A stretch of 64,000 nt of DNA from an uncultured delta proteobacterium (GCA_963708295.1 CAVPSJ010000019.1:81498-145497); one strand, 5' to 3'; shown: positions 541 through 41,153, counted from the first letter of the stretch. A program made the numbers and translations. Notes: generated from the letters alone by a model not told the origin.

Positions 541-669
541 TGGAGTAATGGAGTAACGGAGTAGTGAAAAAAAGGCAAAAGAATCTGGAACAATGGAATC
601 GTGGAATAATGGGAAAACAATTAAAACCTTTATACCCAATATTCCATTCTTCCAATATTCCAGTATTCC
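541..669. repeat. 8-nt-period imperfect inverted repeat array between nuoI and nuoJ
   Basis: Left arm TGGAGTAA/TGGAACAA/TGGAATAA units; right arm TCCAATAT/TCCATTCT/TCCAGTAT units. Confidence 0.8.
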
Positions 670-721
670 TGAACACTCTATCGGAGGTCTGAACTGACTC
701 TTCCATGCCGTTATCTTTTAT

Positions 722-1240
722 GTGCTCGGCATCGTCATCCTGACGGCAACGGGACTCGCCGTCACCCGGCGGCAACCGGTTCATGCCGTGCTCTATCTGA
801 TCGTTGCTTTCTTGGGCACAGCAGCTCTTTTCTTCCTGCTTGGGGCACCGCTCTTGGCCGCCTTCGTGGTCATCATCTACGCAGGGGCGATCCTGGTCCT
901 CGTCCTATTTGTGATCATGCTGCTTCAGCGGTCTCCCCGGGAGCTCAGTTTGCGGTCTGAGTGGGGGCCTGCCGTGCTTTTGGGAATCATCTTTCTCGCC
1001 GTTGCCGTTGCGACGGTCTTCAAGGACCCCGGCAGCAGAATCGTCCTCCAGGGCGCTGTCGCCCAGCCCCGCGACTTCGGTCGTTTCCTCTTCGACAGAT
1101 ACTGGCTGGCCGTTGAGATCGTCTCCATCCTGTTTCTCGTTGCTCTGGTGGCTATCCTTCACTTAGGTAAGAGAAGGGAAGCGGACGGCGACGAGGACCC
1201 CGTTAGAAATCCCAACGGGGCAAAGGAGGGCCACTCATGA
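722..1240 (+). CDS. nuoJ: NADH-quinone oxidoreductase subunit J (true start probably slightly upstream)
   Basis: Hydrophobic; PVHAVLYL and IIYAGAILVLVLFVIMLL motifs; the frame is open back to 698 and there is a GGAGGT at 683. Confidence 0.92.
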   Translation: MLGIVILTATGLAVTRRQPVHAVLYLIVAFLGTAALFFLLGAPLLAAFVVIIYAGAILVLVLFVIMLLQRSPRELSLRSEWGPAVLLGIIFLAVAVATVFKDPGSRIVLQGAVAQPRDFGRFLFDRYWLAVEIVSILFLVALVAILHLGKRREADGDEDPVRNPNGAKEGHS

Positions 1241-1542
1241 TCGTTCCTTTAGGCCATGTCTTTCTTCTGGCAGGGATTGTCTTCGCCATGGGCCTCGTCT
1301 GTCTCGTGGCCCACCGAAACTTAATTATGACACTCATCGGTGTGGAAGTGATGATGAATGCGGCGGCCATCGCCTTCGTCGCGGCGGCCTTGCGCTGGAG
1401 GTTGATGGAAGGGCAAGCCTTTGTCCTCTTCATCCTCGCGGTGTCCGCGGCCGAGATCTCCTTGGGGCTGGCGCTGGTCGTCAGTCTGTATCGACGAACC
1501 GGCTCGATCGATCCGGACCGTTACGACATCTTGAAATGGTAG
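1237..1542 (+). CDS. nuoK: NADH-quinone oxidoreductase subunit K
   Basis: RNLIMTLIGVEVMMNAA and AAEISLGLA motifs; ATGA overlap with nuoJ. Confidence 0.96.
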   Translation: MIVPLGHVFLLAGIVFAMGLVCLVAHRNLIMTLIGVEVMMNAAAIAFVAAALRWRLMEGQAFVLFILAVSAAEISLGLALVVSLYRRTGSIDPDRYDILKW

Positions 1543-1551
1543 TTAAAGAAA

Positions 1552-1601
1552 CTGGAATAATGGAACGCTGGACCCATCATTCCAATATTCCATTATTCCA
1601 T
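1552..1601. repeat. 8-nt-period inverted repeat array (same monomer family as 541-669)
   Basis: TGGAATAA TGGAACGC TGGA / CCCATCAT TCCAATAT TCCATTAT TCCA. Confidence 0.75.
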
Positions 1602-1612
1602 CCGGGTCTCCG

Positions 1613-1720
1613 GGCCCCCCTTTTCCCCTCCCCCTTGGGGGGAGGGCGAGGGTAGGGGTGAAATCCCGGGTGAATTTGGCCCCCTCACCCCAACCCTCTC
1701 CCTCCAGGGGAGAGGGAGTT
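1613..1720. repeat. REP-like doublet of GC-rich palindromes
   Basis: CCCTCCCCCTTGGGGGGAGGGCGAGGGTAGGGGTG facing CCCCTCACCCCAACCCTCTCCCCTCCAGGGGAGAGGG. Confidence 0.75.
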
Positions 1721-1751
1721 ATTGGATGAAAACAACCGAGGTAAGCCAACA

Positions 1752-3635
1752 ATGACTTCCTGGTTACAAGATCCGACGTTGATGGCAGCGATACTGACCA
1801 CGTGGCTGCCCTTCATCTCTTTCCTGCTCATCATGGTGTTCACCAGGAATCATCGGCGCCTCTCAGGCGTAATCGCTGTTGCGGCGGTGACCGGCTCGGT
1901 CGCGGGGGCCGTCTTCCTGCTGACGCGACACTGGGGTGCCGGCCATCCCATCCACTACTCGTCAAGATGGCTCATCGCGGGCGATCTCTCCATCCCCTTC
2001 GGGTTTCTACTGGACCCGGTGAGCCTGCTCATGCTCCTTCTGGTGGCGGGCATCAGTTTTCTCGTTCAGGTGTATTCCTTCGGCTACATGGCCGGCGACC
2101 CGGGGTTCTCTCGCTACTACGCTTTTCAGTCGTTGTTCGCCTGGGCCATGATGACCTTGAGCATCTCTTCGGCCATGCTTCAGCTTTACGTTTTCTGGGA
2201 GCTGGTCGGGCTTTCGTCGTATCTGCTTATCGGTTTCTGGTACGAGAAATTCAGCGCCACCCAGGCGGGAAAGAAGGCCTTTGTCATGACCCGTCTGGGC
2301 GACGTTGCGTTTTTCATCGGCCTTCTGCTGGTACTGCTTCACCTGGGGAACGTGGACATCCTGGAGATGAACAGTCCCGAGGCAGCGGCCAGCATGAACT
2401 CCGGGTTTCTGACCCTGGCGTCACTGTTGATCTTCGGCGGAATCGTAGGCAAGAGCGCTCAGTTTCCGCTGATGACGTGGCTGCCAGACGCCATGGAGGG
2501 CCCCACACCGGTCAGCGCCCTGCTCCACTCTGCCACCATGGTAGCCGCAGGAGTCTATCTTTTCGCCCGCCTGTTTCCTTTCTTCAGCCATTCGGCAGAC
2601 GCCATGACCGTGTTTCTGGCCATCGGCACTGTCTCCATGCTCCTGGCCTCCACTATGGCCATGGTCAGCCGGGACATCAAGCGGGTCTGGGCGTATTCCA
2701 CCATCAGCCAGCTGGGGTTGATGATCATGGGGCTTGCTGCGGGAAGCCTCTTCGCGGGGACCTTTCATCTCACCACTCATGCGGGCTTCAAAGCGCTGCT
2801 TTTCCTCTGTTCAGGCATTTGGGTCCATCTGTACGAGACGAACGATGTGTACGAGATCTCCAGGCGCGGAGGTCGACGGTTGAAGACTCCGATGGTGTGT
2901 TTGGTCATCGCAGCGGCAGCCCTTTCCGGACTGCCGCCGTTCTCGGGCTTTTTCAGTAAAGAGGCCGTGCTCGGGGCACTGGCCGGACTGGAGAGCCCCG
3001 CCTGGCTGGCGGCCGGGTTACTCGGCGTCTTCCTCACCGCTTACTACGCGTTCCGGCTGATATTCATCATTCTCTTCCCGCGGGAAGAAATTCAGAGAGA
3101 GCCTGCCCCTCATAGAACGGAAGGGATGGGCGCTCTCTACTGGGCCATGGGTTTACCGCTACTCATCCTGGCCGGTGTGACCGTGGTGCTGGGGTTTCTG
3201 GAGATTCCGCTCCGTGAGTTTCTCTCAGGGGGCATGACCGCCCACACGTATGGGGATCATACATGGCTTCCCTATATCAGCGTACTGCTGGCAGTCCTGG
3301 GTGTGGGTATCGCCTGGTTTGAGTTTGGCCGCCGCGCTGCCCCTCAGGTCGGTTTCGTCGAGAAGCTCCCGGTACTTAAGGAGCTCTTTGCCCAACGCTG
3401 GTATCTGGACCATGCGTACCGGAGATTTGTGGACACCGTGATCGACGGTCTCCTTTCCAAGGGATGCGCCAAGAACGAAGACAGGGTGATCAACAAAAGC
3501 ATCGATGGGTTCTGCGACTTCATTTTGGACAGCGGTTACCTGTTGTCCTTTCTGCAGTCCGGAAAACTGAGGTACAATCTTATCGTCATGTTCGCCGCCC
3601 TGGCTTTGGTGGCGTTGTACTTTTTGTTCGCTTAG
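1752..3635 (+). CDS. nuoL: NADH-quinone oxidoreductase subunit L
   Basis: FWELVGLSSYLLIGFW and GKSAQFPLMTWLPDAMEGPTPVSALLHSATMV; GAGGT upstream of ATG 1752. Confidence 0.96.
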   Translation: MTSWLQDPTLMAAILTTWLPFISFLLIMVFTRNHRRLSGVIAVAAVTGSVAGAVFLLTRHWGAGHPIHYSSRWLIAGDLSIPFGFLLDPVSLLMLLLVAGISFLVQVYSFGYMAGDPGFSRYYAFQSLFAWAMMTLSISSAMLQLYVFWELVGLSSYLLIGFWYEKFSATQAGKKAFVMTRLGDVAFFIGLLLVLLHLGNVDILEMNSPEAAASMNSGFLTLASLLIFGGIVGKSAQFPLMTWLPDAMEGPTPVSALLHSATMVAAGVYLFARLFPFFSHSADAMTVFLAIGTVSMLLASTMAMVSRDIKRVWAYSTISQLGLMIMGLAAGSLFAGTFHLTTHAGFKALLFLCSGIWVHLYETNDVYEISRRGGRRLKTPMVCLVIAAAALSGLPPFSGFFSKEAVLGALAGLESPAWLAAGLLGVFLTAYYAFRLIFIILFPREEIQREPAPHRTEGMGALYWAMGLPLLILAGVTVVLGFLEIPLREFLSGGMTAHTYGDHTWLPYISVLLAVLGVGIAWFEFGRRAAPQVGFVEKLPVLKELFAQRWYLDHAYRRFVDTVIDGLLSKGCAKNEDRVINKSIDGFCDFILDSGYLLSFLQSGKLRYNLIVMFAALALVALYFLFA

Positions 3636-3674
3636 GACGTCGCCGAATGGACTCGGTGATTTAGTTGTCGCAGT

Positions 3675-3761
3675 CGGAGTAATGGAATATTGGAGTGATG
3701 GAGTAATGGTCATGTCTTTTTTCTTTTTTATCTCCAACATTGCAGTACTCCAGCACTCCAT
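3675..3761. repeat. 8-nt-period inverted repeat array between nuoL and nuoM
   Basis: CGGAGTAA TGGAATAT TGGAGTGA TGGAGTAA / TCCAACAT TGCAGTAC TCCAGCAC TCCA. Confidence 0.8.
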
Positions 3762-3784
3762 TTATCCAGTCTGAGAGTACACCA

Positions 3785-5266
3785 ATGAATGTTGAAGTGG
3801 CTCATTTTCCGTATCTTTCCGCCATCCTTCTCAGCTGCGTGGTGGGCCTTGTGGTCATCCTTTTCATTCCCCGCGAGCGAGAAACCCTGGTCAAGGGGGT
3901 AAGCCTGGTCTTTTCGGGGATCGCTCTGGCGCTTTCCATCTATGTTTTTTGCGCGTATGACAGGGCGCAGGGAGGCCTTCAGTTCGTAGAGAAAGTGCTT
4001 TGGGTGGAGCGGCTGGGAATTCACTACTTCAACGGAGCGGACGGCTTCAACCTTCCTTTGATCCTCCTCACCGGGATTGTGCACTTCACCGGCGTTTTAA
4101 CGATGTGGGAGTTAAAGGGACGGGTCAAGGAGTTCTTCGCCTTTACCTCCGTGCTCGTCCTCGGCGTCTTCGGATTCTTCATGAGTATGGATCTCTTCTT
4201 TCTCTTCGTCTGGTACGACGTCTCCCTTTTCCCCATGTATCCGCTCATCGCCATCTGGGGAACGACGCGAAAGGAGTACGGGGCGCTGAAACTCTTCCTT
4301 TACCTCCTGGCGGGAAGCGCCCTGGTCCTTCCGGGCATCGTGTATCTCGCGGTGGTCTCAGGGTTGCACACCTTCGACATCTTGGCCCTCATGCAGCCGG
4401 GGGCCTTGACGCCCGGGCAGCAGAGGTTTGCCTTCATCCTCTTTTATCTCGGCTTCGGGATCCTCGCGGGCGTCTGGCCTTTTCATACGTGGTCGCCCGT
4501 TGGCCACGTGGCCGCGCCCACATCCGTGAGCATGATTCACGCTGGAGTCCTGATGAAGGTCGGCGCCTTCGGAATTCTGCGGGTTGCGATTTTTCTCTGC
4601 CCGATCGGGTGGGCGTACTGGGCGCCCGTGATGGCCGTTTTGGCAACCATCGGCATCGTCTATGGAATCTTCGTCGGGCTGAGACAGACCGACCTCAAGT
4701 ATGTGGTTGCCTTTTCCAGCGTCTCCCACATGGGGATCGTGGGGCTGGGGCTTTCCACAGTCACTGCGGAGGGGCTCAACGGGGCTGTCTTTCAGATGTT
4801 TGCCCACGGCATCATGACCGCGCTTCTCTTCTCATCCCTGGGTTACATCTACGACAAGACACACACCAAATTGATCCCGGAACTTGGCGGAATGAGCAGG
4901 GTCATGCCCGTGGCCTCGGGTTACTTCATCGTGGCTGCACTGGCCGGAATGGGGGTACCCGGTTTCGCCAGTTTCTGGGCGGAGGTGACGGTCTTCATCT
5001 CTGCTCTCGAGGTCTACCCCGTCCTGGGCGTGCTGGCCATCTGTGCCGTGGTCCTGAGCGCCCTCTACATGCTGAGGGTGGTGCAGAAAACCTTCTACGG
5101 GGAACGGAACGAACGCTACGCTCATCTGCCAGACGTCTCCTTCAGCCTCGGCCTGCCCAGGATGATCCTGGTTGCGGTCATGGTTCTCTTCGGCCTGTTT
5201 CCCAGACTGATGCTCGATCTCATTCAAACGGCTGTCATTCCATTGATGGGAGGGGCGCCCAGATGA
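3785..5266 (+). CDS. nuoM: NADH-quinone oxidoreductase subunit M
   Basis: WPFHTW, AFSSVSHMG, FQMFAHG and PGFASFWAE motifs; located between nuoL and nuoN. Confidence 0.95.
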   Translation: MNVEVAHFPYLSAILLSCVVGLVVILFIPRERETLVKGVSLVFSGIALALSIYVFCAYDRAQGGLQFVEKVLWVERLGIHYFNGADGFNLPLILLTGIVHFTGVLTMWELKGRVKEFFAFTSVLVLGVFGFFMSMDLFFLFVWYDVSLFPMYPLIAIWGTTRKEYGALKLFLYLLAGSALVLPGIVYLAVVSGLHTFDILALMQPGALTPGQQRFAFILFYLGFGILAGVWPFHTWSPVGHVAAPTSVSMIHAGVLMKVGAFGILRVAIFLCPIGWAYWAPVMAVLATIGIVYGIFVGLRQTDLKYVVAFSSVSHMGIVGLGLSTVTAEGLNGAVFQMFAHGIMTALLFSSLGYIYDKTHTKLIPELGGMSRVMPVASGYFIVAALAGMGVPGFASFWAEVTVFISALEVYPVLGVLAICAVVLSALYMLRVVQKTFYGERNERYAHLPDVSFSLGLPRMILVAVMVLFGLFPRLMLDLIQTAVIPLMGGAPR

Positions 5267-6675
5267 AGTGGTTGATCCTCGGGCCGGAGATTTACTTTCT
5301 CGCAGTCGCCGCCGTATTCCTCATCTTCTCCATGACGCGCCCGAAGGGGAGGCGTGATTTCTCGGCTGCCTTATTCCTCGCCGGCCTTGGGGTGGCGGTG
5401 ACGCTGGCGGCCGTCCGCCTGGAGGGATCCCTTTTCCACGGAGCTTATCGAGTCGATCTCTTCTCCCAACTCTTCAAGGGCTTGTTGTCCGTTGGATTCT
5501 TCCTCGTGGTCTGTCTCTGCTCAAACCTGAAAGGAATTCACGAGACAAAGCAACCGGAGTTCTATCTTCTGCTGGCAACCTGTACCCTGGGCATGATGTT
5601 GTTGGTCAGCAGCCTCGAACTACTGACCCTCTATGTCGCACTCGAGCTGGCCAGTTACTCGCTCTATGCCCTCGTCCCGTTGAGAAGCGGCAGCGGCCAG
5701 CAGATCGAGGCCGGGATCAAGTACTTTCTTACGGGGATCGCCACCTCGGCCCTGATGCTTTTCGGCTTAGCCTCTCTGTTCGCGGCGACGCAGACCACCT
5801 TGATCAGTGAGCTGATTCTGAAGCTGCCCGCCTTGCTCAACACCCCCATGGCCTTCATCGGGCTGCTGCTCACCCTGTGCGGTTTTTTCTTCAAGCTGGC
5901 CCTCTTTCCGTTCCACGTCTGGGCACCCAGCGTGTACCAGGGAGCCGCAAATCAGGTGACGGCGTTTCTGGCCACTGCCACAAAGGTAACGGCCATGGCC
6001 ATGCTCGTCCGCCTGGTATCCATGAGCGACGGCAACATATCCTTGGCCCACGTGCTCATCGCGCTTGCCATCGTCTCCATGACCTACGGGAACCTGGTCG
6101 CGCTGGTTCAGAAGGACTTCAAGCGCCTGCTGGCTTATTCGGCCATCGCCCATGCGGGCTACTCGCTCATCGGCATCCTCAGCATGAATCCAACCGGCTA
6201 CGCCGCCGCGGTCTTCTACGCCCTGGCTTACCTCGCCATGACCTTCACTTGTTTCCTCGTCGTGGTGAAGGTCGCATCGGACGGCCGCGACCTCCCGATC
6301 GTCCAGCTGGCGGGGCTTCACCGTCGCTCGCCGCTCCTGGCCATGGCGCTCATGGTGGGCGTGTTCAGCTTGGGGGGTATCCCTCCGACGATCGGATTCA
6401 CCGGGAAGTTCCTGGTCTTTAATGCGGCCATGGAGAGAGGATACTTTCTGTTGGTCCTCATCGCCATGATCAACGTGGTCGTTTCTCTCTACTATTACAT
6501 CCTGGTGGTGAAAGCGGCTTTCCTCCTCGAGCCGGACGAGGAGCTACCGCCCATCCATCTCTCTGCCCCTGCGACCCTTCTCACTGTGGTGATGGTTCTC
6601 GTGATCGTCGTAGGGGGTATTTGGCCGGGCCAGCTCTTCGAGTTGGCTCGGACCGCCGTGCAAACACTCCGGTAA
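5263..6675 (+). CDS. nuoN: NADH-quinone oxidoreductase subunit N
   Basis: EAGIKYF, FKLALFPFHVWAPSVYQGA, KRLLAYSAIAHAGY and SLGGIPPTIGFTGK; ATGA overlap with nuoM. Confidence 0.96.
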   Translation: MKWLILGPEIYFLAVAAVFLIFSMTRPKGRRDFSAALFLAGLGVAVTLAAVRLEGSLFHGAYRVDLFSQLFKGLLSVGFFLVVCLCSNLKGIHETKQPEFYLLLATCTLGMMLLVSSLELLTLYVALELASYSLYALVPLRSGSGQQIEAGIKYFLTGIATSALMLFGLASLFAATQTTLISELILKLPALLNTPMAFIGLLLTLCGFFFKLALFPFHVWAPSVYQGAANQVTAFLATATKVTAMAMLVRLVSMSDGNISLAHVLIALAIVSMTYGNLVALVQKDFKRLLAYSAIAHAGYSLIGILSMNPTGYAAAVFYALAYLAMTFTCFLVVVKVASDGRDLPIVQLAGLHRRSPLLAMALMVGVFSLGGIPPTIGFTGKFLVFNAAMERGYFLLVLIAMINVVVSLYYYILVVKAAFLLEPDEELPPIHLSAPATLLTVVMVLVIVVGGIWPGQLFELARTAVQTLR

Positions 6676-6739: not shown

Positions 6740-7291
6740 ATGAGAATAAAAGTAATTTACGGATGGGTATTCCTGGCAATGCTCCTACTCTTTCTTCTTC
6801 CCCTTTCCGAGGTGAAAGCCGCGAAGAAGGTAGAGCTCGTCGGCAAGGAGACACTCAATTTTACCCTGCCATCCACGCAGGACCGGTTGATCAATTATGC
6901 GGATGAGTATTATGGAAAGCATTATCTCATCATCACATTCTTCCCAGCGGCTTTCACACCGGTCTGAACGGGCGAGATGGAGGGTCATCAGAGGAATCTT
7001 TACCTCTATGACCGCTTCAACGCCCGCGTCGTGGGCGTCAGCCGGGACGATGTGACCACATTGAAATACTGGGGGAAGGATCTGGGTGTCACCTTTCCGC
7101 TTCTTTCAAACATCACTGGGTTCTTGGGTGTTACTTTCGACACGCTCATCGAAGGGAAACCCATCTTTCGAAGGAGAACGGTGATCATCGATAAAACCGG
7201 GATCATTCGCTATGCGAGGGATGGTTCACCCGACTTCAAAGATATTCTCCTCTTTCTCAAAAAACTGAACCAGGAAGGAGGAAAACCATGA
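6740..7291 (+). CDS. Exported peroxiredoxin-like (AhpC/TSA, BCP/AhpE-type) protein, probable selenoprotein (UGA 6965-6967)
   Basis: ORFs 6740-6967 and 6977-7291 are in frame; FFPAAFTPV-UGA-TGEM matches PxxxTxxC; downstream VVGVSRD, FPLLS and RRTVIIDKTGIIRY complete the Prx fold; N-terminal signal peptide. Confidence 0.88.
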
Positions 7292-7899: not shown

Positions 7900-7962
7900 T
7901 CTGAAGAGTTATTGAGTGAATAAGTTATGGAGTTATTCTGGAAAAGGGTGAGAGAAATTCTC

Positions 7963-9157
7963 TCATCCTTTTTTATTTAGTGCGGTCAGGGCGAGACAGA
8001 GCAGAAACCCTGTCAGGGAAACGATCAGCGTTGATTGAAAAGAACCCGTCGAATCCTTAAGATACCCGCCGGAGATCGTCCCCAAAAACTGCCCGATGCC
8101 GTGGATTAAAGTGACCAATCCGTAGACAGAAGCCCTTTTTTCACCGATCCGGTCTCCAACGGATGCCGCCACCACAGTGACTGTTCCTAAGAACGTCCCC
8201 CCGAAAAGAAAGGCTGAAAAACCCATGAAGAAAGTCTGATGAAGCAGCAGAGGAAGGAGGACGGAAAGCGAGATGATCCCGTTGTTCCAGAGCAATGCCT
8301 TCCGTCGACCCAAACGGTCTGAAAGGTATCCCCAGAGGAGTCCGCTCCCCGTACACATCCAGCCAAAAATGGCCCAGATATCCCCTGCCGTTTTCGCTGT
8401 CAGTCGAATCTCTTCTATCATATAAGCAACAAAGTAGGTCGCATAGATGTTATAAGAGAATCCAAAGATGAAATAGATGACAAAAATGGCCTTCAGGGTG
8501 AGTTCTTCACTCTCTCTCTTGAAGAGGTAGTCGCTTCTTCTCTCCATCAAGACTGGGAGCGAGAAAAGCGGTCTGGCCCGGTTTCTCTTTCAATAATATC
8601 CATCCGAGGACGGCAACCGAAAAAGTGATCAACGCCAGAAGGAACCAGCACTGTCTCCAGGCCTCCTTTCCCAAACTGAGGAGAAGATAGGGAAGCAGGA
8701 GGCCCGTGACAATAATACCAAGGCCTGTCCCGCCTGTGACGACGCCAACGGCCCTGCCCAGTCTTCGCTCTTCGAACCAGACCATGGGTAAAGTGGTTAT
8801 GGAGATGTGAGAACCCGCAGCCCCTGCTCCCATGGCAAAGCTGAAAAAGAGAAGGGAAGGAAATCCTGATAATCTGCTGATGAAGAACATGGAAAGTGCC
8901 CCGCACAGGAGAGAAGCGATCACAATCCTCTTCGGCCCGAATCGCGTGGCTAACATTCCACCAATGAGCGAAAAGAGAAGGTAACCCAGCATGATGGCTC
9001 CGCTCAAAAGCCCCATCTCGCTGTAATTGAACGAGAGCGATGCTCGCATATTGGGCAAAAGCATGGGATAAGCAAACCGGCCAAACCCCAGACCCGTCAT
9101 CTTGACGAGGACCCCCACTCCTACAATCACCCAACCGTAGTGGATCGCTTTCATCAT
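7963..9157 (-). CDS. MFS transporter (YbfB/YjiJ-like), split by one frameshift near 8510-8550
   Basis: GFGRFAYPMLLP, GMLATRFGPKR and GYLSDRLGRRK MFS motifs spread over two overlapping ORFs. Confidence 0.85.
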
Positions 9158-12745: not shown

Positions 12746-14386
12746 CTAAACGGGTTGGTAGGTACTAAAGCGCACGGTCTGAGAGCGGGCACGCGGGTCA
12801 GTGACAACATTGACCACGGCCGGCTTTCCGGCACGCACCGCGGCTTGGGCGCGTTCCAGACTCGGGCGAATCTCGTCGGGTCTTTCTACGTGCTCACCGT
12901 GGCAACCCAAAGCTTCGGCAATTTTGTCGTAGCGGGTAAAACCCAGGTCGCGACCGGCCATCTCACCGACCCCGGCCCAGCCGCCATTGTTGCTCACGAC
13001 GACCAGGATCGGGATGTTCTGCCGCACAGCAGTGTCCATCTCCATTCCATTCAAGCCAAAGGAGCCGTCCCCACTGAGGACGATCACCTGCTTGTCAGGT
13101 TTGGCTATCTTCGCGCCGAGGCCGTAGGGAACCGCCACGCCCATACAGCCGTTGGCTCCGGCGTTGATGCGATGGCCCGGCGCATAGGTGGGAATCGACT
13201 GTCGCGCGTAATTTAGAATTTCGTGGCCGTCTACCGCCAGGATTGCGTCGCGATCCATAAAATCGCGCACTTCTTTGCACAGACGCAAAGGATGAATGGG
13301 CACCGCATCGGTGTTGAGCAGCTCCGCCGCTTTTTCCTCGTTCTGGTGCGACGCCCGTCGCAGATCAGCAATCCAGGGAAGGTCCACTGGAGAGGAGAAA
13401 ACCCTGCGGGCGACCTCCGTCAGCTGCTCTAAGACGCGTCGCGCATCGCCGACGATGCCAATATCGATCGTGCGATTGCGCCCTAATTCCTCGCGAGAGA
13501 TATCGACCTGGATCATCTTCACATCCGATGCCCAACGCGGTGGCAGGCCGAAGCCCACGATAAAATTGAGTCGGGTCCCGATCATCAGGACCACATCCGC
13601 CTCTCTAAAAGCCTTCGAGCGGGCACCCAGGAAAGAGAGCGAATGGTCCTCCGGGATGACGCCCCGTCCCTGTGGCGTGGTGGCGAAGGGAATACCCGTG
13701 GCATCGACGAACATCCGGAGGGCTGCTGAGGCGTCAGACCACAGAATGCCGCTGCCGGTCAGAATGAGAGGGCGTTTCGCATGCCTGAGGAGTGCCACAG
13801 CTTCCTCGATCAATTCGGGATCCCCGCCAGGCCGTGGCTGTTTGGGCAGATTCCGCGGAAACGGCACTTCATCCAGTTCTACCTGAGCATACAGGATGTC
13901 TCCCGGCAGATCGAGATAGACCGGTCCCTGCTGGCCCTGGGTGGCCATACGGATTCCCTTACCCATCAGCTCTGGAATGCGCCGCGCATCCGTAACGCGC
14001 TCGGCCCATTTGCACACGGGTTTGAAGATGGATAATTGATCGATCTCCTGAAACCCCCCTCGGCTGTTCTGCGTCATCGGGCTTGATCCTCCCAGCGCCA
14101 CGACGGGCGTGGCATCGAGAAAGGAATTGCCGATGCCGGTCAGGAGATTCGTTGTTCCGGGTCCGGAAGAAGCAAAGCAGATCCCAGGCTTGCCGGTCAG
14201 GCGACTATAAGCGTGCGCCATCATGGCTGCCGCCTGCTCATGGCGCACGCCAATCGATTTAAGTTGCATCTCTATGCAGAGCCTGGCAACGTCCGACATG
14301 GGCCCACCGGGAAGATAGAAGATGGTGTTGACCCCTTCGTTCATCAGACTTCGCACGACCAGATCGCTCCCGGTCACTTTCGGCAT
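12746..14386 (-). CDS. ThDP-dependent enzyme (2-hydroxyacyl-CoA lyase / oxalyl-CoA decarboxylase-like)
   Basis: RHEQAAAMMAHAY, SGPGTTN, GFQEIDQ, GPVYLDLP and the ThDP motif GDGSFG...NN. Confidence 0.9.
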   Translation of the reverse strand: MPKVTGSDLVVRSLMNEGVNTIFYLPGGPMSDVARLCIEMQLKSIGVRHEQAAAMMAHAYSRLTGKPGICFASSGPGTTNLLTGIGNSFLDATPVVALGGSSPMTQNSRGGFQEIDQLSIFKPVCKWAERVTDARRIPELMGKGIRMATQGQQGPVYLDLPGDILYAQVELDEVPFPRNLPKQPRPGGDPELIEEAVALLRHAKRPLILTGSGILWSDASAALRMFVDATGIPFATTPQGRGVIPEDHSLSFLGARSKAFREADVVLMIGTRLNFIVGFGLPPRWASDVKMIQVDISREELGRNRTIDIGIVGDARRVLEQLTEVARRVFSSPVDLPWIADLRRASHQNEEKAAELLNTDAVPIHPLRLCKEVRDFMDRDAILAVDGHEILNYARQSIPTYAPGHRINAGANGCMGVAVPYGLGAKIAKPDKQVIVLSGDGSFGLNGMEMDTAVRQNIPILVVVSNNGGWAGVGEMAGRDLGFTRYDKIAEALGCHGEHVERPDEIRPSLERAQAAVRAGKPAVVNVVTDPRARSQTVRFSTYQPV

Positions 14387-14817
14387 GGTTCTCCTTGCAG
14401 AGCTTTATTGTTGTAATCCGTCACCCAGTTCTGGATTTTTTTGCAAATTGTTTGGACGGTTTGTGAAATAGGCGTCACAAAGTCCGTCTTTCTAATCTCT
14501 TTGTAAAAGATTGCGACTAGATTTACAACTAATACCGCCTGCGCAGTCCACCTATCTATCGTCGATGGCAAGATGATCTCGGAGTTTAGGATTACTGATC
14601 AAAATGTGTAAACAAGGTAGCTTACTACATTGGAGATAATACGTACATATCGAAGAATGAGAAAAATCCTTGACAAGTCCCAATTTTTATGCCTTTATTT
14701 AGGCAAATAGACAACCAAATTGTTTTGAAGGAGGTGATGGAATCAGCAATTATTGGAATTTTTTAGCTCAGGGAAATTCCTGATATTATTGATATTATTA
14801 AGGAAGGAGGGAGAAGA

Positions 14818-15381: not shown

Positions 15382-15404
15382 TCTGATAATGATTCATTAA
15401 TGGA

Positions 15405-20158: not shown

Positions 20159-20170
20159 CCGTCATTCACA

Positions 20171-26727: not shown

Positions 26728-26913
26728 CTACTCCTCCCCCTGATAGGGAAGCGCTTCGTCAATCAACATCACGGGGATATCGTCCTTGATCGGGTAGAGC
26801 AAATGACACGCCTTACAGATCAAGCCATCCCCTTTACGATTCAGGAAAATATCTCCTTTGCACTTCGGACAGGCCAAAATCTCCAAAAGCTCTTTACTGA
26901 TAACCATTTTCAT
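26728..26913 (-). CDS. Trm112/YcaR family protein
   Basis: LLEILACPKCKG..LICKACHLLYPIKDDIPVMLIDEA. Confidence 0.93.
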   Translation of the reverse strand: MKMVISKELLEILACPKCKGDIFLNRKGDGLICKACHLLYPIKDDIPVMLIDEALPYQGEE

Positions 26914-26989
26914 TCTCCTTTTCTATCTCTTTCCTACGATAGATTCATCTCCCATGGAGGATCAAAATGAATAATCCCCCCTCCCCTCT

Positions 26990-27154
26990 GAAGCTGTGAA
27001 AAAATTGAATTTCAGTCCCGCCGTAGCGGGATGAAAACCGGGGTCCAGCCGGTTTGTAATGTCATGAAAACTCTGGATTCCGGCTGGAGTTTATCCCGAT
27101 GCAAATCGGGGCCGGAATGACATGAGAAAGAACCAAATCAATTTTTTGCACTTC
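26990..27154. mobile_element. MITE-like non-autonomous element, copy 2
   Basis: GAAGCTGTGAAAAAATTGA..TCAATTTTTTGCACTTC ends; core CTGGATTCCGGCTGGAGTTTATCCCGATGCAAATCGGGGCCGGAATGAC nearly identical to copy 1. Confidence 0.7.
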
Positions 27155-27182
27155 CCCTTTACTAAAGGGCGGGGATTTTACC

Positions 27183-27777: not shown

Positions 27778-27988
27778 GCTGAGATGGCGCGATAGCAAGA
27801 CACGGGGAAACCACTTCACCCCGTCACCCGATCACCGTGTCACCGCGTCTCCTGATCGCTGGGTCTTTAATCCCCCCATCCCCTTATCTCCCTATCGCCG
27901 TGTCGTGACTCTCTCCGTCACCGGGTCTCTCCATCGCCCTATCTTTAATCTCCCCATCCCCCCATCTCCGTGTCTTCGTTTCGCCGGA
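27778..27988. repeat. 8-nt-period repeat array (CCGTGTCA/CCCATCCC type)
   Basis: CCCGTCAC CCGATCAC CGTGTCAC CGCGTCTC; TTTAATC(C/T)CCCCATCCCC occurs twice; short complementary arm at 27778-27808. Confidence 0.7.
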
Positions 27989-28768
27989 TCACCCTTCGTT
28001 GTATCGTTCCAGTTCAAATCGATCGGGAGGGGTAAAACGCAAGAAAGACCGGTGAACCACCCAATCTCCTACATTGTAGTAAAGACATCTCCTCCCATCA
28101 ATCCACTCCTCAACCCCTTCCGGGAAATGGGAGTGGCCGAGGATGACGATCTCAAACCCCCGCAAAAACTTCTGATGAGCAAAAGCCCTGAAAGCCGGGG
28201 GGGGAGCAGGCTGCTCTCCGTCATGATATTTTTGATAAGTGACGTCGCTTAATCTTTGAGCAATGTGCCGAGAGATCCGAGGACCGACAAAATGGATGAG
28301 ACGATAGGTCAGTGCGTTCTTGAGAATTCTTCGGAAGACCCGGTAAGTCCACTGCCTTGGATTCGATAAATCTCCATGGGCGATGAAGGCCCTGCTTTCT
28401 CCCAACCTTTCTTCACACCCGTCGGGATAGACCTCAACCTCCATCCCAAATTGTTCCGGGAAAAAGGAATGAAGAAAGAAATCGTGGTTCCCCTCGAAGT
28501 ATTTAATTCGGATCCCTTCGTGGTACAAGCGTTGAAGCTGATTAAGAACGGGGAGGTAATCGGAAAACAAAGAAGGTTTCTCGGTTGAGGAACCCTTTTT
28601 AAAACCGAAGAAGAATTCGAAAAGATCGCCCAGGATCACCAGATGGCCAATCCGCTTTTTCTCTGAATCCAAGAATCTGAGAAAACCCTCCATGGACTCA
28701 GAATCTCGTCCGGTGAAATGGGCATCGGAAACAAAAATCCAGTCCTTTTCGGAACGAACCAATCCCAA
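27989..28768 (-). CDS. lpxH: UDP-2,3-diacylglucosamine diphosphatase
   Basis: Metallophosphoesterase motifs SDAH, LGDLFE, GNHD, HGD, GHSH and GDW; LPS operon context. Confidence 0.88.
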   Translation of the reverse strand: MGLVRSEKDWIFVSDAHFTGRDSESMEGFLRFLDSEKKRIGHLVILGDLFEFFFGFKKGSSTEKPSLFSDYLPVLNQLQRLYHEGIRIKYFEGNHDFFLHSFFPEQFGMEVEVYPDGCEERLGESRAFIAHGDLSNPRQWTYRVFRRILKNALTYRLIHFVGPRISRHIAQRLSDVTYQKYHDGEQPAPPPAFRAFAHQKFLRGFEIVILGHSHFPEGVEEWIDGRRCLYYNVGDWVVHRSFLRFTPPDRFELERYNEG

Positions 28769-30976: not shown

Positions 30977-31039
30977 CTTCGAAGTGAATCCATTTCTCCC
31001 TTGGACGGCACCCTCGAGAAAATTGCCATCCGAGCGGTT

Positions 31040-31250
31040 AAAATCCGAAGCACGAAATTCGGGCGAAGCATCCCGCAGGGATCAATACGAAATAATTTGA
31101 GGCTCCTCGCCGACACACGGAGCTTCCCAGATACGTGGTCTCAATTTTACTGTTGTGCCCTCTCAGGGCGCGTTGCCGGCCAAAAACCAAATTCAAATGC
31201 TCCAAACTCACTTTGAAAATTGTGTCATTCGATATTCGGATTTGTTATTC
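31040..31250. repeat. 7-nt-period inverted repeat array with internal insertions
   Basis: AAATCCG AAGCACG AAATTCG .. AAACCAAATTCAAATGCTCCAAAC / TTTGAAAATT..TTCGATATTCGGATTT. Confidence 0.7.
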
Positions 31251-31264
31251 AACAAATGCACACT

Positions 31265-32281: not shown

Positions 32282-32338
32282 TTCCTTCTCACCTCTTCCA
32301 ACTATCCGACTCAGTCATCGCTGCCGAAGGAGCGGTCA

Positions 32339-32500
32339 AAACTCGAAATCCGAATATCGAGCGAAGCGTCCGTTTCGGACCAATCCGAAATATACATCAA
32401 ATTCAAATGACTAAATTTATGAAACATGCTTTGACTTCATCCCGAATTTGGCGCTTTTGCAATTTGGATTTGTTTCGGATTTCGTGCTTCGAGTTTGAAG
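32339..32500. repeat. 7-nt-period inverted repeat array
   Basis: AAACTCG AAATCCG AATATCG .. / TTTGGATTTGTTTCGGATTTCGTGCTTCGAGTTT. Confidence 0.8.
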
Positions 32501-32506
32501 TTCTTT

Positions 32507-32989: not shown

Positions 32990-33125
32990 TCAATTTCAAA
33001 CGTGAAATTGAACCCACACCTCAAATGCTAGAATGTTGACTTCGAAATTTGAAATTCATTTGCCTTTTGGATCTTAGACATTGGGCGTTCATTTGAAATT
33101 GGTCATTTAAAATTTGAAATTGATT
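32990..33125. repeat. 7-nt-period inverted repeat array
   Basis: CAATTTCAAACGTGAAATT..CAAATG / CATTTG..CATTTGAAATTGGTCATTTAAAATTTGAAATTG. Confidence 0.7.
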
Positions 33126-33127
33126 GA

Positions 33128-33856
33128 TCAAAGTTTGTTGGCTCCCGTTTGGGCCACCAGTTGATTTGCGCGAAGCAGGGATTCGAACGTCCCCGCGTCA
33201 GTCCACCACCCCTCTAAAATATCCCATGTCATCAGCCCTTTTTCAATATACTGATTGTTTACATCGGTAATCTCCAACTCCCCCCGGTCAGAGGGCTTGA
33301 GCGTTTTGATGGTGTCGAAGACCTGCTGATCAAAAAGATAGATCCCGATCACGGCATACCCGGACTTGGGTTCCTTGGGCTTTTCTTCGATTCCGGCGAT
33401 CCGATCCCCCTTCAGCTCGGCAACCCCGAATCGCTGCGGGTCGGAGACTTCTTTCAACAAGATCTTCGCCCCTCGCTCTTGTTTTCGAAAGTTTTCTACC
33501 GCCTTTCGGATATTTTTTTCGATGATATTATCTCCCAACACCACACAGATTTTCTCTCCGGAGGCAAAGAACTCGGCCAGCCGGAGAGCTTCGGCAATTC
33601 CTCCTTCTCCCTCCTGATACGTGTAGTTCATATGTTTGAGCCCGAATTCCTTTCCGTTTCCCAAGAGCTTCAGAAAGTCTCCGGCATTGTTTCCGCCCGT
33701 AACGATCAAGATGTCATCAATCCCCGCATTGATCAGAGTCTGGATCGGGTAGTAGATCATCGGTTTATCGTAGACGGGAAGGAGGTGTTTGTTGGTCACC
33801 TTGGTCAATGGGTAGAGCCGGGTCCCCAAGCCACCCGCCAGAATCACACCTTTCAT
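33128..33856 (-). CDS. rfbA: Glucose-1-phosphate thymidylyltransferase (short form)
   Basis: LAGGLGTRLYPLT, LLPVYDKPMIYYP, EEKP, SDRGELEITDVN and WTDAGT. Confidence 0.92.
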   Translation of the reverse strand: MKGVILAGGLGTRLYPLTKVTNKHLLPVYDKPMIYYPIQTLINAGIDDILIVTGGNNAGDFLKLLGNGKEFGLKHMNYTYQEGEGGIAEALRLAEFFASGEKICVVLGDNIIEKNIRKAVENFRKQERGAKILLKEVSDPQRFGVAELKGDRIAGIEEKPKEPKSGYAVIGIYLFDQQVFDTIKTLKPSDRGELEITDVNNQYIEKGLMTWDILEGWWTDAGTFESLLRANQLVAQTGANKL

Positions 33857-38213: not shown

Positions 38214-38323
38214 TCTCTTCGGCCATCCCTTCTAGTCAAGTGATTTAACGTAACAAAATCACGGCGAGATGTCAATTCATTCTGCCTCTTTCTCTCTGAA
38301 TCCATTGAACATCCTACCCCTTC

Positions 38324-39625
38324 ATGCTATTTTTATCCCTAGTGAGAAAAGTTCGGGTCCTTATCGAATCTTTGGCATATAAAGGGTACGGAGTGGCTCG
38401 AGTCGACGGCAAAGTGGCCTTCGTCCCCTACACCCTGGCCGGCGATGAGGCATGGGTTGAGATTACGGAGGAGAAAAAGACATACTCGGCAGGAAGGTTA
38501 ATTCAGCTCCTCAAACCTTCTCCCGGGAGAGTGACCCCCCCGTGCCCCTACTTCGGAACTTGTGGCGGCTGCCAATGGCAACACATCGACTATCCGATTC
38601 AGGCGGAGCAGAAGAAAGAGATCTTAGGAGAGACCCTCAAAAGATTGGGGGGCCTGAAGGAAATCCCTCCCATCAGCGCGGTCCCTTCGCCTAAACCCTA
38701 TGACTATCGGGTCAGGGTCCAGTTGAAAGCCAAGGGAAAAGCGATGGGCTATTATCAGGAAAGATCCCATCGGATTGTCGATGTCGAACGCTGCCCCATT
38801 TCACATCCTCTGGTCAATCAGATCATCCAAAGCCTGCGTGATCAGTTAGGCATTTTGTCTCGCATCGAAGAGGTTGAGATCAACGTCTCTCCGGAGGAAG
38901 GGAGAGGAGTCCTCTTATTCCATCCTCATTCCTCTGACCAACGGGCCGAGCCTTTCACGACAGATCTCCTCCAGCGTCAGCCGTTGTTGAAGGGGATCGC
39001 CATATCCCGAAAAGACGGACACCAACGGATCGGTGATCCTACTCTGAACTTCACCCTTCTTTTGAGTCACTGGAAAGAAAAAAGGGAACTCAAACTTCGA
39101 ATCTCCCCAGGGAGTTTTTCTCAGGTCAATCCGGAGCAGAACCAAAGACTCGTCCAGACGGTTCTTCAGTTCTCAGAAGTGAATCAGGAAGACAGGGTGT
39201 TCGATCTCTATGCCGGCGCGGGAAACCTGACGCTCTCGTTGGCCACGGAGGCGGGGGAAGTCTTGGGAATTGAAGAGAATAGAATAGCCTCCGAGGATGC
39301 ACAGTTCAACGCGGAAAGAAACGGGATTAAGAATTGTCGCTTTATTCACGGGCGGGTAGAAGATGTCCTCTTGGACTGGGAAAGAGAGTCCCCTGATCTT
39401 ATCGTCCTCGACCCTCCGAGGACAGGGTGCAGGACCATCCTCGATCCCGTGGTCAGATTGAAACCCAAAAAAATCATCTACGTCTCTTGCGAGCCGACGA
39501 CCTTTGCCCGGGACCTCCGGCTCTTTTGGGAGAGAGGGTATTCCCCGCAAAGACTTACCCTGATCGATATGTTCCCGCAGACCTACCACATGGAAACGGT
39601 GGGACTATTATTACCGAAAGCGTAA
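38324..39625 (+). CDS. rlmD: 23S rRNA m5U methyltransferase (RlmD/TrmA family, TRAM domain); start may be GTG 38342
   Basis: CPYFGTCGGCQWQH, FSQVN, DLYAGAG, LDPPRTG, YVSCEP and DMFPQTYHME. Confidence 0.9.
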   Translation: MLFLSLVRKVRVLIESLAYKGYGVARVDGKVAFVPYTLAGDEAWVEITEEKKTYSAGRLIQLLKPSPGRVTPPCPYFGTCGGCQWQHIDYPIQAEQKKEILGETLKRLGGLKEIPPISAVPSPKPYDYRVRVQLKAKGKAMGYYQERSHRIVDVERCPISHPLVNQIIQSLRDQLGILSRIEEVEINVSPEEGRGVLLFHPHSSDQRAEPFTTDLLQRQPLLKGIAISRKDGHQRIGDPTLNFTLLLSHWKEKRELKLRISPGSFSQVNPEQNQRLVQTVLQFSEVNQEDRVFDLYAGAGNLTLSLATEAGEVLGIEENRIASEDAQFNAERNGIKNCRFIHGRVEDVLLDWERESPDLIVLDPPRTGCRTILDPVVRLKPKKIIYVSCEPTTFARDLRLFWERGYSPQRLTLIDMFPQTYHMETVGLLLPKA

Positions 39626-39666
39626 CGTCAGCAGCACGGCGCTGCAGATACCAAACAAGCCACAGA

Positions 39667-39809
39667 AAATCCGAAATCCGAATATCGAAATCCGAAACAA
39701 GCTCAAAATTCCAATAACCGAATTTCCAAAACTCGTTTCAGTTTCTGTTTAGAATTTTGAATTTACGCTATTTGATATTGTTTCGAGTTTCGGATTTCGT
39801 GCTTCGAGT
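39667..39809. repeat. 7-nt-period inverted repeat array between convergent rlmD and hisG
   Basis: AAATCCG AAATCCG AATATCG AAATCCG AAACAAG / TTGTTTCGAGTTTCGGATTTCGTGCTTCGAG. Confidence 0.85.
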
Positions 39810-40682
39810 CTAAATCACTTTATTCAGCGGATATTCGATAATCCCCACCGCTCCGAGTTTCTGCAAGTTCGGAATGAGTTCCCGGACGATCTTCTCGGAA
39901 ATAATCGTCTCCACAGAAAACCAGTCATTTTGGAATAGGTTGGATACCGTCGGGGCCGTGATGCTGGGGAGGATTTCAATCACGCTCTTGAGGTCATTGG
40001 CCGATACGTTCATCTTCAGCCCAACCATCCCCTCCGCCCGGAGGGCTCCCTGAAGCAGCAGCGAGATCTGCTCGATCTTCTCCCTTTTCCAAGGGTCCTG
40101 ATAGGAAGAACGATTCGCGATCAGCTGGGTATTGGTCTGCAGGAGCTCTTCGACGATTCGCAGGTTATTGGCCCGCAACGTACTTCCGGTCTCCGTGACC
40201 TCAACGATGGCATCGCTCAACCCTTCGATGATCTTTCCCTCGGTCGCTCCCCAGGAGAACTCCACCTGGACGTGGATTTTTCGCTCGGCAAAGTATCGTT
40301 TGGTGAAATTGACAAGCTCCGTAAAGATCTTTTTCCCCTCCAAATCCTCCAAGTGGCGGATGGGAGAATCCTCTGCGACGACCAGGACCCATCGTGCAGG
40401 GGTGGGACTGGCTTTTGAATAAACCAAATCTTGGACCACGACCACATCGGAATCATTTTCCATGATCCAATCCTTCCCCGTCAGCCCTACATCCAGCGTA
40501 CCGATTTCCACAAACCTCGACATTTCCTGGGCCCTGACCAGAGTGCAGCGGATTTCATCATCATCTACGATGGGAAAGTAACTCCGGGAACTGACCGAAA
40601 TCTTCCAGCCTGACTTCCTGAAGAGCTCAATGGTGGCGTTTTCAAGACTTCCTTTAGGGATTCCAATTTTCAGTATGCTCAC
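39810..40682 (-). CDS. hisG: ATP phosphoribosyltransferase (long form)
   Basis: [37 protein letters not shown] and a C-terminal ACT-like domain. Confidence 0.96.
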
Positions 40683-41056
40683 TCTCCGTACACCTCCCTC
40701 GGGTCGAAAACTTTCTTTCCCTCAACCTTCCATTTCCCTTTTTCAAACCGTTGGTGGAAGCAGCTCCGGAAACCGGTATGACAGGCAGCCCCTCCCTTCT
40801 GATCCACCTTGAGCAGGAGGGTATCTCCGTCACAGTCAAGATAAATTTCCTTGATCTCCTGAAAGTTCCCCGACGTCTCTCCCTTTACCCAAAGCTTATG
40901 GCGAGACCTTGACCAGAAGGACGCCTTTTTCGTCTCCAGCGTCTTCTCCCACGATTCTCGATTCATGTAGCCTAACATCAAGACTTCATCGGTGGAGGCG
41001 TCCTGGATGATGACCGGGATGAGCCCGTCCCCTTTCTGAAAATCGATCTCGATCAA
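40679..41056 (-). CDS. hisI: Phosphoribosyl-AMP cyclohydrolase
   Basis: [20 protein letters not shown] and [10 protein letters not shown]. Confidence 0.96.
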
Positions 41057-41077
41057 TTTATCTCCTCCTTGGAGAAG

Positions 41078-41153
41078 TTCGGAGTAGTTTCGTTCGGAGT
41101 TCGGAGGGCATCATTCATATATCGATATATCCCCGAACTCTGAACTCCGAGCT
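41078..41153. repeat. 7-nt-period inverted repeat array (GTTCGGA type)
   Basis: GTTCGGAG..GTTCGGAGTTCGGAG / CCCCGAACTCTGAACTCCGAGC. Confidence 0.7.

Follow-up and report, generated by a model that had tools for sequence, protein, structure and literature searches.

Tandem units of 7-9 nt have been described in intervening sequences (IVS) of 23S rRNA and as intergenic repeats in Geobacter, Xanthomonas, Anabaena and Beggiatoaceae. We analysed repeats of this kind in a stretch of 64,000 nt from an uncultured delta proteobacterium (GCA_963708295.1 CAVPSJ010000019.1:81498-145497; hereafter the window), where periodic, imperfectly inverted arrays stand in the gaps between housekeeping genes. The reading that we favour, with slightly better than even confidence, is that these arrays are gene-less copies of dispersed small hairpin elements, IVS-like and situated in mRNA spacers, which are co-transcribed with the operon genes and are probable substrates of RNase III.

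In Coxiella, the 23S rRNA IVS is 428 nt long, has a 28-bp stem and carries an S23p open reading frame (ORF) in the rRNA sense. Two to three tandem heptamers, their number depending on the strain, lie directly upstream of the ATG, and RNase III cuts in the stem at the start of the first repeat (PMC4990558, cited here, like the other papers, from excerpts). According to the same excerpts, RNase III excision of IVS is cited for other bacteria too, and an older idea is restated by which IVS were once mobile elements whose ORF served mobility. In Geobacter metallireducens, pairs of sites on opposite strands comprise 3-5 tandem units of 7-9 nt at variable distance and in several classes. One such pair lies between proB and proA, and the sites were proposed to bind IHF/HU or global regulators yet to be identified (PMC2700814). 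In Xanthomonas, a heptamer (GGGAATC) recurs as 70-75 convergent pairs, mostly intergenic and close to the upstream gene, and a related repeat of Anabaena has one copy between pecE and pecF (PMC4692102). TAACTGA repeats occur in Beggiatoaceae, according to a paper that also summarises the slippage account of heptanucleotide repeats by Mrazek 2007 (PMC4679880).

Position, periodicity and folding of the elements

The window has a G+C content of about 0.50. It begins with nuoI-J-K-L-M-N at 2-6675 on the plus strand (NCBIfam and Pfam names); a minus-strand cluster comprises lpxL, a trm112-like gene, gmhB, lpxH, ugd, rmlD, rmlB, an rmlC-like gene, rmlA, lptD, folC and accD, after which come rlmD (plus strand), hisG, hisI and a DUF72 gene. 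One LptD scan of species-representative genomes yielded 18 related loci (L001-L018), in which the junctions between the DUF72 gene and lpxL were compared. The nearest genomes found, assembled from metagenomes, belong to Thermodesulfobacteriota and carry the labels Syntrophaceae, Syntrophorhabdus or deltaproteobacteria; their LptD identities are 58-85%. Periodicity was tested with 1000 shuffles per element, taking the maximum over lags 4-12, and complementarity by folding against 200 dinucleotide shuffles. The fractions in the following list give the shuffles that equalled each element; TRF denotes Tandem Repeats Finder.

541-669, plus strand: nuoI/nuoJ element of 8-nt units, starting 9 nt past the nuoI stop; left arrays at about 541-566 and 586-614, right array at 636-669; TRF period 8; lag-8 identity 0.58 (0/1000); folding z -2.55 (3/200).
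1552-1601, plus strand: nuoK/nuoL element, a short near-perfect hairpin of 8-nt units with arms at 1553-1572 and 1581-1600, 85% complementary; lag-8 identity 0.67 (0/1000); z -4.49 (0/200).
3675-3761, plus strand: nuoL/nuoM element of 8-nt units with a T-rich loop; TRF period 8 in both arms; lag-8 identity 0.54 (0/1000); z -3.38 (1/200).
26601-26714, minus strand: trm112/lpxL element of 7-nt units; lag-7 identity 0.45 (0/1000); z -4.11 (0/200); the orthologous gap in relatives measures 74-235 nt and has other monomers.
27778-27988, minus strand: lpxH/gmhB element, one long purine-rich 8-nt array complementary only at its ends (27789-27808 and 27965-27984, 80%); lag-8 identity 0.52 (0/1000); z -3.31 (1/200).
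31040-31250, minus strand: rmlB/rmlD element with AAATCCG-type arms at its ends, a non-periodic interior and a small covarying hairpin at 31070-31082; periodicity weak (40/1000); z +0.27 (116/200, folded as 31030-31262); 3' arm 81-84% identical over 55-58 nt to elements of L018, L012 and L002.
32339-32500, minus strand: rmlC/rmlB element, AAATCCG-type, with a small covarying hairpin at 32368-32380; arms at 32336-32354 and 32474-32492, 84% complementary; best lag 9 (22/1000); z -1.82 (8/200, folded as 32330-32506).
32990-33125, minus strand: rmlA/rmlC element of 7-nt AATTTCA-type units, arms 83% complementary; lag-7 identity 0.46 (0/1000); whole-element fold not significant, z -1.08 (26/200, folded as 32990-33128).
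39667-39809, no strand assigned: hisG/rlmD element between convergent genes, AAATCCG-type, the best-preserved copy; lag-7 identity 0.51 (0/1000); z -2.90 on the plus and -4.24 on the minus strand.
41078-41153, minus strand: DUF72/hisI element of 7-nt CGGAGTT-type units, its end just preceding the hisI ribosome-binding site; lag-7 identity 0.41 (12/1000); z -2.52 (3/200).
7905-7937, no strand assigned: one-armed 8-nt half-array; lag-8 identity 0.64 (5/1000); no hairpin, z 0.03.
22101-22132, no strand assigned: one-armed 7-nt half-array, GCATAGC type; lag-7 identity 0.60 (3/1000); z -0.84.
24135-24162, no strand assigned: one-armed 7-nt half-array, GCATAGC type; TRF period 7; lag-7 identity 0.71 (0/1000); z 0.40.

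All ten main elements lie in gaps between NCBIfam/Pfam-named genes and none enters a reading frame, in agreement with a preliminary description of the stretch that had placed them at gene junctions. They leave the ribosome-binding site of the downstream gene free. Their assignment to the nuo, lipopolysaccharide (LPS)/rfb and his clusters also stands, save that 39667-39809 is flanked by convergent genes and is not within an operon. Past 41 kb, the stretches that were read showed no additional arrays of this type.

The 7/8-nt periodicity ascribed to the elements was borne out. In seven of the ten, the best lag was 8 (identity 0.52-0.67) or 7 (0.45-0.51) and was reached by no shuffle; periodicity was weaker in 31040-31250, 32339-32500 and 41078-41153, and few or no shuffles matched the three half-arrays. 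In a scan of the whole window, 16 of 10,659 segments of 48 nt had an identity of at least 0.60, versus a mean of 0.15 such segments in block shuffles. These 16 merged into five regions, four of them fully in gene gaps and the fifth, 27943-27996, lying 15% inside lpxH. TRF reported period 8 for the three nuo elements and 27816-27966, and period 7 for 33091-33121, 39667-39697, 39780-39809, 41092-41106 and 24137-24159. Over the window and the 18 loci together (376,778 nt), TRF rows numbered 113, 57 and 40 for periods 7, 8 and 9, versus 8, 25 and 16 for periods 5, 6 and 10.

Complementarity of the arms was found in most elements. Seven of the ten folded with z between -2.5 and -4.5, at most three shuffles being as stable. 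The two-armed architecture proposed for them held in part: 27778-27988 is a single long array in which GA recurs at 8-nt intervals on the transcribed strand, and in 31040-31250 arms of a recognisable family are confined to the ends. The three half-arrays form no hairpin. When TRF consensus sequences were paired, 13 of 56 neighbouring pairs of arrays were inverted, a number to be read as a floor because TRF misses degenerate arms.

Duplex energies between arms, tabulated 10 x 10, sort the ten elements into roughly five families. The nuo elements, three in number, make up one, three AAATCCG-type elements a second, and a third consists of the two elements of AATTCCA/AATTTCA type, whose pairing with one another is only partial; the GGAGATNG and CGGAGTT types are represented by one element each. 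Duplexes of an element's own arms had a mean energy of -27.6 kcal/mol versus -14.8 kcal/mol for foreign arms. These energies, and the other monomers at the junctions of relatives, agree with the earlier observation that the architecture is common to the elements and the sequence is not.

The start of nuoJ, next to the first element, is anomalous. No ATG, GTG or TTG occurs from the in-frame TGA at 695 to a GTG at 722; the sole good Shine-Dalgarno motif (684-688) lies 33 nt upstream of this GTG, and an out-of-frame ATG stands at 705. Possible causes are a frame error, an atypical start, or disturbance of the start region by the adjoining element.

Turnover and dispersal among relatives

Between the DUF72 gene and lpxL, gene order has been conserved across the 18 relatives. 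Spacer lengths range from 17 to 278 nt at rmlA/rmlC, 38 to 417 nt at rmlC/rmlB, 36 to 632 nt at rmlB/rmlD and 31 to 435 nt at lpxH/gmhB. Other junctions are stable: accD/folC measures 16-28 nt, and hisI and hisG overlap or nearly so. A single junction can be empty in one relative, hold the same architecture with other monomers in another, or contain unrelated small repeats in a third; the presence and absence that the preliminary description proposed to look for in relatives were therefore both found.

The rmlC/rmlB junction illustrates this turnover. An AAATCCG-type two-armed element is present there in the window and in L001, L004, L012 and L018, and in L009 and L014 its unit is altered in both arms together. 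In L003, L008 and L016 the junction holds two-armed elements of the GCATAGC type, the monomer of the half-arrays at 22101-22132 and 24135-24162, and in L002 and L010 a fourth monomer type. In L013 and L015 it is 38-39 nt long and the element is absent. Overall, element-free spacers of 31-47 nt occur at element-bearing junctions in L013, L015 and L017. At DUF72/hisI, a two-armed 7-mer element, in four monomer types, is found in eight of the nine relatives having the junction; the ninth, L015, has a 71-nt gap without clear arms. A similar 8-mer array opens the lpxH/gmhB gap in most relatives, and decayed one-armed remnants remain there in L007 and L014. Units of 9 nt were also found, at rmlB/rmlD in L001, L003, L008 and L017. 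Unit copy number differs between relatives. The same junctions host unrelated small inverted-repeat insertions in L011, L015 and L018 and nested GGGAGAGGG-type hairpins in L014 and L017, so that the earlier term landing pad fits them in a weak sense.

The elements also recur at non-orthologous sites. An all-against-all blastn of 129 spacers gave 50 matches between different junctions, several of which span whole elements together with the non-repetitive loop. The rmlA/rmlC element of L002 matched lpxH/gmhB of L004 with 87% identity over 138 nt, the hisG/rlmD element of the window matched rmlA/rmlC of L001 with 80% over 143 nt, and two junctions within L001 shared 80% over 117 nt. Since local slippage cannot put one loop at different sites, these data indicate that the elements are multicopy and dispersed. 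Slippage probably alters unit number or arm length once an element is in place. A blastn search of plasmids with the best-preserved element (39667-39809) gave no match, for which the low-complexity filter may be the cause.

Two further kinds of repeat were noted at these loci. G-rich/C-rich hairpins of the GGGAGAGGG / CCCTCTCCC kind form a second family, present in the window at 1601-1720 and 59794-59883 and nested in the loops of periodic arrays in L003, L007, L014 and L017. The gmhB/trm112 spacer (26909-27182), 269 nt in the window, measures 23-41 nt in 11 of the 17 relatives having the junction and 68-275 nt in the other six. It contains small hairpin-rich insertions, not periodic arrays, and L017 and L018 carry different insertions there.

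A four-helix-bundle gene and the competing explanations

Protein families were scanned in 119 ORFs of the window (NCBIfam/Pfam) and in 72 locus ORFs, taken from the 81 that measure at least 70 aa and lie outside the syntenic genes, nine long ones being left out; the sequence examined amounts to the 64-kb window and 312 kb of relatives' loci. One ORF, L018:14689-15093, matched PF05635, the 23S rRNA IVS protein (IVP) family (E 7.8e-13; PDB 2rld, E 8e-15). It lies in the operon direction inside the 632-nt rmlB/rmlD spacer, at the junction orthologous to the gene-less window element 31040-31250, and is bracketed by a left run of about 100 nt of A-rich 7-mers and a complementary right run. Its first ATG falls within the left run, so that the array would encode about 22 residues at the N terminus. 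At a different junction, L004 has the left run and the first codons of this gene (86% over 90 nt), followed by unrelated sequence and then the right run. The gene body is gone, and this copy is a cassette with a decayed gene.

To survey such genes more widely, the core of the L018 protein was used in a tblastn search of plasmids, which gave 29 records, mostly annotated 'four helix bundle protein'. Nine (L019-L027) were taken for taxonomic spread and were picked before their flanks had been seen. Seven of the nine genes lie between two co-directional genes, including an RND adaptor and permease, a helicase and methylase, and DUF1156/Swt1-type HEPN genes; another runs in the same direction as cas1 without an annotated upstream neighbour, and the last is antisense between cas2 and cas1. 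Inverted tandem arrays of 7 or 8 nt flank six of the nine on both sides. These six come from Nostoc, Planktothrix, Anabaena, Gloeocapsa, Chondrinema and Treponema and span Cyanobacteriota, Bacteroidota and Spirochaetota. In four 50-kb stretches, 11 arrays lay within 350 nt of the gene versus 1.76 expected, a figure that is illustrative because the stretches were chosen once the flanks were known. In the Treponema stretch the three flanking arrays were by far the strongest, and in the Chondrinema stretch the two flanking arrays were the sole 7-nt arrays of at least three copies; the Nostoc stretch also has several gene-less inverted pairs. Together, the L018 gene, the gene-less shell in L004 and the plasmid genes support what the preliminary description had suggested, namely that similar arrays flank four-helix-bundle genes elsewhere and that those of the window are the empty form.

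The plasmid genes often lie within defence or mobility gene sets (helicase/methylase; DUF1156/Swt1-type HEPN; beside cas1 or cas2).

Other proposed partners fared differently. Among the 119 window and 72 locus ORFs, no family of RAYT/Y1 transposases, GIY-YIG proteins or integron integrases was listed, the sole integrase-core match being an insertion sequence fragment at the end of L008. Nor was a GxxExxY family listed among them, no search having been aimed at it. The co-occurrence that had been suggested was thus not seen, and there is no evidence here for the attC/REP-type recombination system put forward earlier. The earlier alternative, mRNA processing, is plausible only by analogy with the excision of 23S IVS by RNase III.

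A scheme for such elements can be proposed. The full-length form would consist of two long arms around a four-helix-bundle gene (S23p/23S rRNA IVS protein, PF05635), each arm built from degenerate 7-9-nt units in series and reverse-complementary to the other. The elements occupy permissive spacers just past a stop codon, leaving the ribosome-binding site of the next gene free. Transcribed with the operon, their arms would pair into an imperfect double-stranded RNA stem of 20-60 bp, which RNase III probably cuts as it does the 23S rRNA IVS. The operon transcript would thereby be divided into two products, each with a hairpin stub, and the effect on the host is probably small.

We examined the elements for signals at the RNA level. 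Inside the 3' arm of seven AAATCCG-type copies (window 31070-31082 and 32368-32380, minus strand; L002, L004, L012, L017 and L018), a 5-bp hairpin is followed by a conserved GCTTCGC motif. Three of its five pairs show compensatory changes, 94% of cells are paired and the covariation score was reached by none of 500 shuffles, in a small sample of seven related sequences. The hairpin is on the sense strand in all seven copies; because these represent about 4-5 independent insertions, all in one gene direction, no strand conclusion is drawn.

Intrinsic terminators were considered and rejected: none of the elements was called on the sense strand, which has no U-tract terminator, and terminator-like sites numbered 15 versus 19.8 expected and 10 versus 9.9.

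Several points weigh against the reading of the arrays as IVS-like elements. Three of the ten (32330-32506, 32990-33128 and 31030-31262) miss the folding level of 3/200, and 27778-27988 is essentially one-armed. The consensus fold of nine AAATCCG-type copies had no useful covariation: RNAalifold gave -3.29 kcal/mol, a positive covariation term and compensatory changes at 5 of 22 pairs, an uninformative result in an alignment where the aligner slips register on the tandem units. In 57 of 88 spacers folding is better on the sense strand (30 opposite, one tie), but the G-richness of that strand and the common ancestry of the sequences confound this bias, and it is not counted as evidence for a function at the RNA level. 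Cleavage by RNase III is drawn from analogy with the 23S IVS. The 119 ORFs of the window include no PF05635 ORF, the 18 relatives gave only one intact IVP gene and one remnant, and three of the nine plasmid IVP genes have no clear inverted arrays (direct arrays in Bernardetia, a long-period repeat in Pseudanabaena, weak arrays in Chlorohelix). The relatives are metagenome-assembled genomes in which repeats are possibly misassembled, with N runs in L012 and L013. Finally, comparison of flanks by eye gave no consistent target-site duplication; as neither such a duplication nor a transposase was identified, mobility is argued from distribution alone.

Of the alternatives, host-selected regulatory RNA ranks first by a small margin, unlikely as we consider it. 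The arrays would then be intercistronic stabilisers, attenuators or translational couplers, each junction needing some hairpin. The rmlC/rmlB, rmlB/rmlD, lpxH/gmhB and DUF72/hisI junctions are indeed filled, by different families, in most relatives having them, the downstream ribosome-binding site is spared, and the purine-rich arms have repeated GGAG-like motifs. However, some of these junctions are element-free in L013, L015 and L017, take unrelated small repeats elsewhere and retain decayed one-armed remnants in L007 and L014, and the elements supply no sense-strand U-tract terminator or enrichment of terminator-like sites.

It is improbable, in our estimate, that the arrays act at the DNA level, as sites where a nucleoid protein or an oligomeric DNA-binding protein (IHF/HU or a global regulator so far unknown) bends or bridges DNA. 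Strict periodicity suits repeated protein contact, and the excerpts of Aklujkar 2009 (PMC2700814) describe paired opposite-strand sites, for which the authors suggest IHF/HU, and one class unit that resembles the units of window 27778-27988. Those excerpts name no identified binding protein, however, and two independent binding sites need no arm complementarity. The sites appear and vanish among close relatives. Moreover, monomers are wholly different from element to element in a single genome and differ from relative to relative at a given junction, so that no single regulator fits.

Just as improbable is local replication slippage, by which the arrays would be simple repeats without mobility or function, the G-rich ones possibly forming quadruplexes. 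In its favour, many bacteria have no long simple repeats more abundant than the heptanucleotide ones, which the excerpts of PMC4679880 ascribe to polymerase slippage. Xanthomonas GGGAATC repeats fold into quadruplexes in vitro (PMC4692102, excerpts), window 27778-27988 has many G-runs on the transcribed strand, and unit copy number varies among relatives. But slippage alone makes no pair of complementary arms, cannot account for whole elements with non-repetitive loops at other junctions and in other genomes, and leaves the association with one gene family across phyla unexplained.

Least probable is a nature as REP/BIME-like or attC-like sites of single-strand DNA recombination, mobilised by a tyrosine transposase (RAYT) or integrase encoded elsewhere. 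In its favour, these imperfect palindromes are multicopy, intergenic and often intra-operon right after stop codons, and one copy holds a promoter-less gene in the loop. Against it, their arms are long tandem arrays instead of a single 20-40-nt palindrome, and no Y1-transposase or integron-integrase family accompanies them among the ORFs scanned, although in 64 kb plus 312 kb a distant gene could have escaped notice. Each of these alternatives explains part of the data, and each fails on cross-junction homology, monomer diversity, the absent recombinase, or empty and decayed sites.

Neighbouring features and known systems

Rfam at gathering thresholds gave no match in the window, rRNA included, and no tRNA gene was found there. 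Next to a DGQHR gene (DndB/DpdB-like, 20943-22124), a stretch of low G+C (0.40-0.45) at 14000-20900, in which almost all ORFs are without family match, is a candidate acquired island. At 22207-22700 (plus strand), a rhodanese-like gene stops at a TGA right behind '...LYCA'. If this TGA is read as selenocysteine, the frame runs on for 41 residues, up to the following TGA, and its match with the family 'rhodanese-related (seleno)protein' becomes complete, so that the gene is probably a selenoprotein split by ordinary ORF calling. At 51582-59659 (minus strand), many short ORFs in differing frames contain pieces of two proteins, a penicillin-binding protein 1C (transglycosylase, BiPBP_C) and an alpha-2-macroglobulin (MG2, A2M, bMG10); this is either a decayed gene pair or a stretch rich in indel errors. 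Further frame breaks appear to affect an MFS transporter in two overlapping ORFs (7963-9157, minus strand) and the plus-strand ORFs at 6740-7291, of which 6977-7291 matches only the last 69 of the 124 positions of an AhpC/TSA profile and 6740-6967, just upstream, has no family match.

REP/BIME elements and MITEs (miniature inverted-repeat transposable elements) are small, non-coding, multicopy inverted repeats that occur in intergenic DNA, often past stop codons inside operons. The placement of the window elements resembles that of REP (repetitive extragenic palindromic)/BIME (bacterial interspersed mosaic element) sequences and of integron cassettes. Like MITEs, they are multicopy, dispersed and non-coding and have terminal inverted repeats. 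They differ in having arms that are tandem arrays, not unique terminal repeats, and no RAYT or transposase partner among the scanned ORFs. No family of the Y1 transposases (RAYT) that mark REP/BIME, together with a short conserved palindrome head, was listed among the 119 window and 72 locus ORFs, and the only gene-bearing form carries a four-helix-bundle gene and no known transposase. The elements are scattered through housekeeping operons instead of forming one array as integron cassettes would, and no integron-integrase family was listed.

The repeats of Xanthomonas, Nostoc/Anabaena and Beggiatoaceae share with the elements described here tandem heptamers that are mostly intergenic and nearer the upstream gene, many of the repeats standing as convergent pairs and some being intra-operon (pecE-pecF); paired forms are few in Anabaena and Beggiatoaceae. 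They differ in having been studied as direct repeats or quadruplex formers, and no cargo gene is reported in the excerpts. The class 1-3 sites of Geobacter, from a related deltaproteobacterial lineage, are alike in pairing, unit size, variable spacing, number of families and intergenic or intra-operon position; this likeness is one of description. They differ in being read as DNA-binding sites, and the excerpts mention no link to a four-helix bundle or IVS.

With the 23S IVS of Coxiella, Leptospira and others, as excerpted, there are several points of likeness: terminal inverted repeats that build a long stem; a loop holding a four-helix-bundle ORF that reads in the same sense as the host transcript; heptamers in tandem, variable in copy number, beside the ORF; sporadic distribution; and ORF decay. 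The loop ORF, a feature of a subset of IVS, was absent from the ORFs scanned in the window and is present in L018, with a remnant in L004. By contrast with IVS in helix 25 or 45 of 23S rRNA, the window elements stand in mRNA intercistronic spacers, are ORF-less and have long multi-unit arrays as arms, and their cleavage by RNase III is proposed by analogy.

In the literature searched, as far as the excerpts go, four-helix-bundle genes were not found linked to flanking arrays outside rRNA, and no record joined 'four helix bundle' with 'GxxExxY'. Among the matches listed, going by titles and the starts of abstracts, no paper on the IVS protein family concerned flanking arrays, and only the Coxiella paper (PMC4990558) joined IVS with heptamers.

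More widely, it is conceivable, if doubtful, that IVS are one face of pan-bacterial selfish gene cassettes. An S23p/Avd-like gene bracketed by inverted 7-9-nt arrays would settle in mRNA operons as well as in 23S rRNA, borrow the host promoter, be excised by RNase III and leave ORF-less arrays on decay, which would explain much of the heptanucleotide excess, and its protein would recognise the periodic arms. The corresponding prediction is that the arrays are RNase III cut sites in operon transcripts, bound by the four-helix-bundle protein. If true, thousands of 'four helix bundle protein' annotations would gain context, and operon maps of many environmental bacteria would have to allow for built-in processing sites. 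For annotation, such spacers should be treated as repeats, not as missed genes or as regulatory regions specific to the flanking genes.

The elements of the window thus belong to a kind that was seen before in Geobacter, Xanthomonas and cyanobacteria and left unexplained there, and tying such arrays to IVS elements and their protein appears to be new. The heptanucleotide excess, the paired 'regulator sites' of Geobacter and the origin of 23S IVS with their S23p proteins have been three separate puzzles; the comparison suggests that one kind of element lies behind all three.

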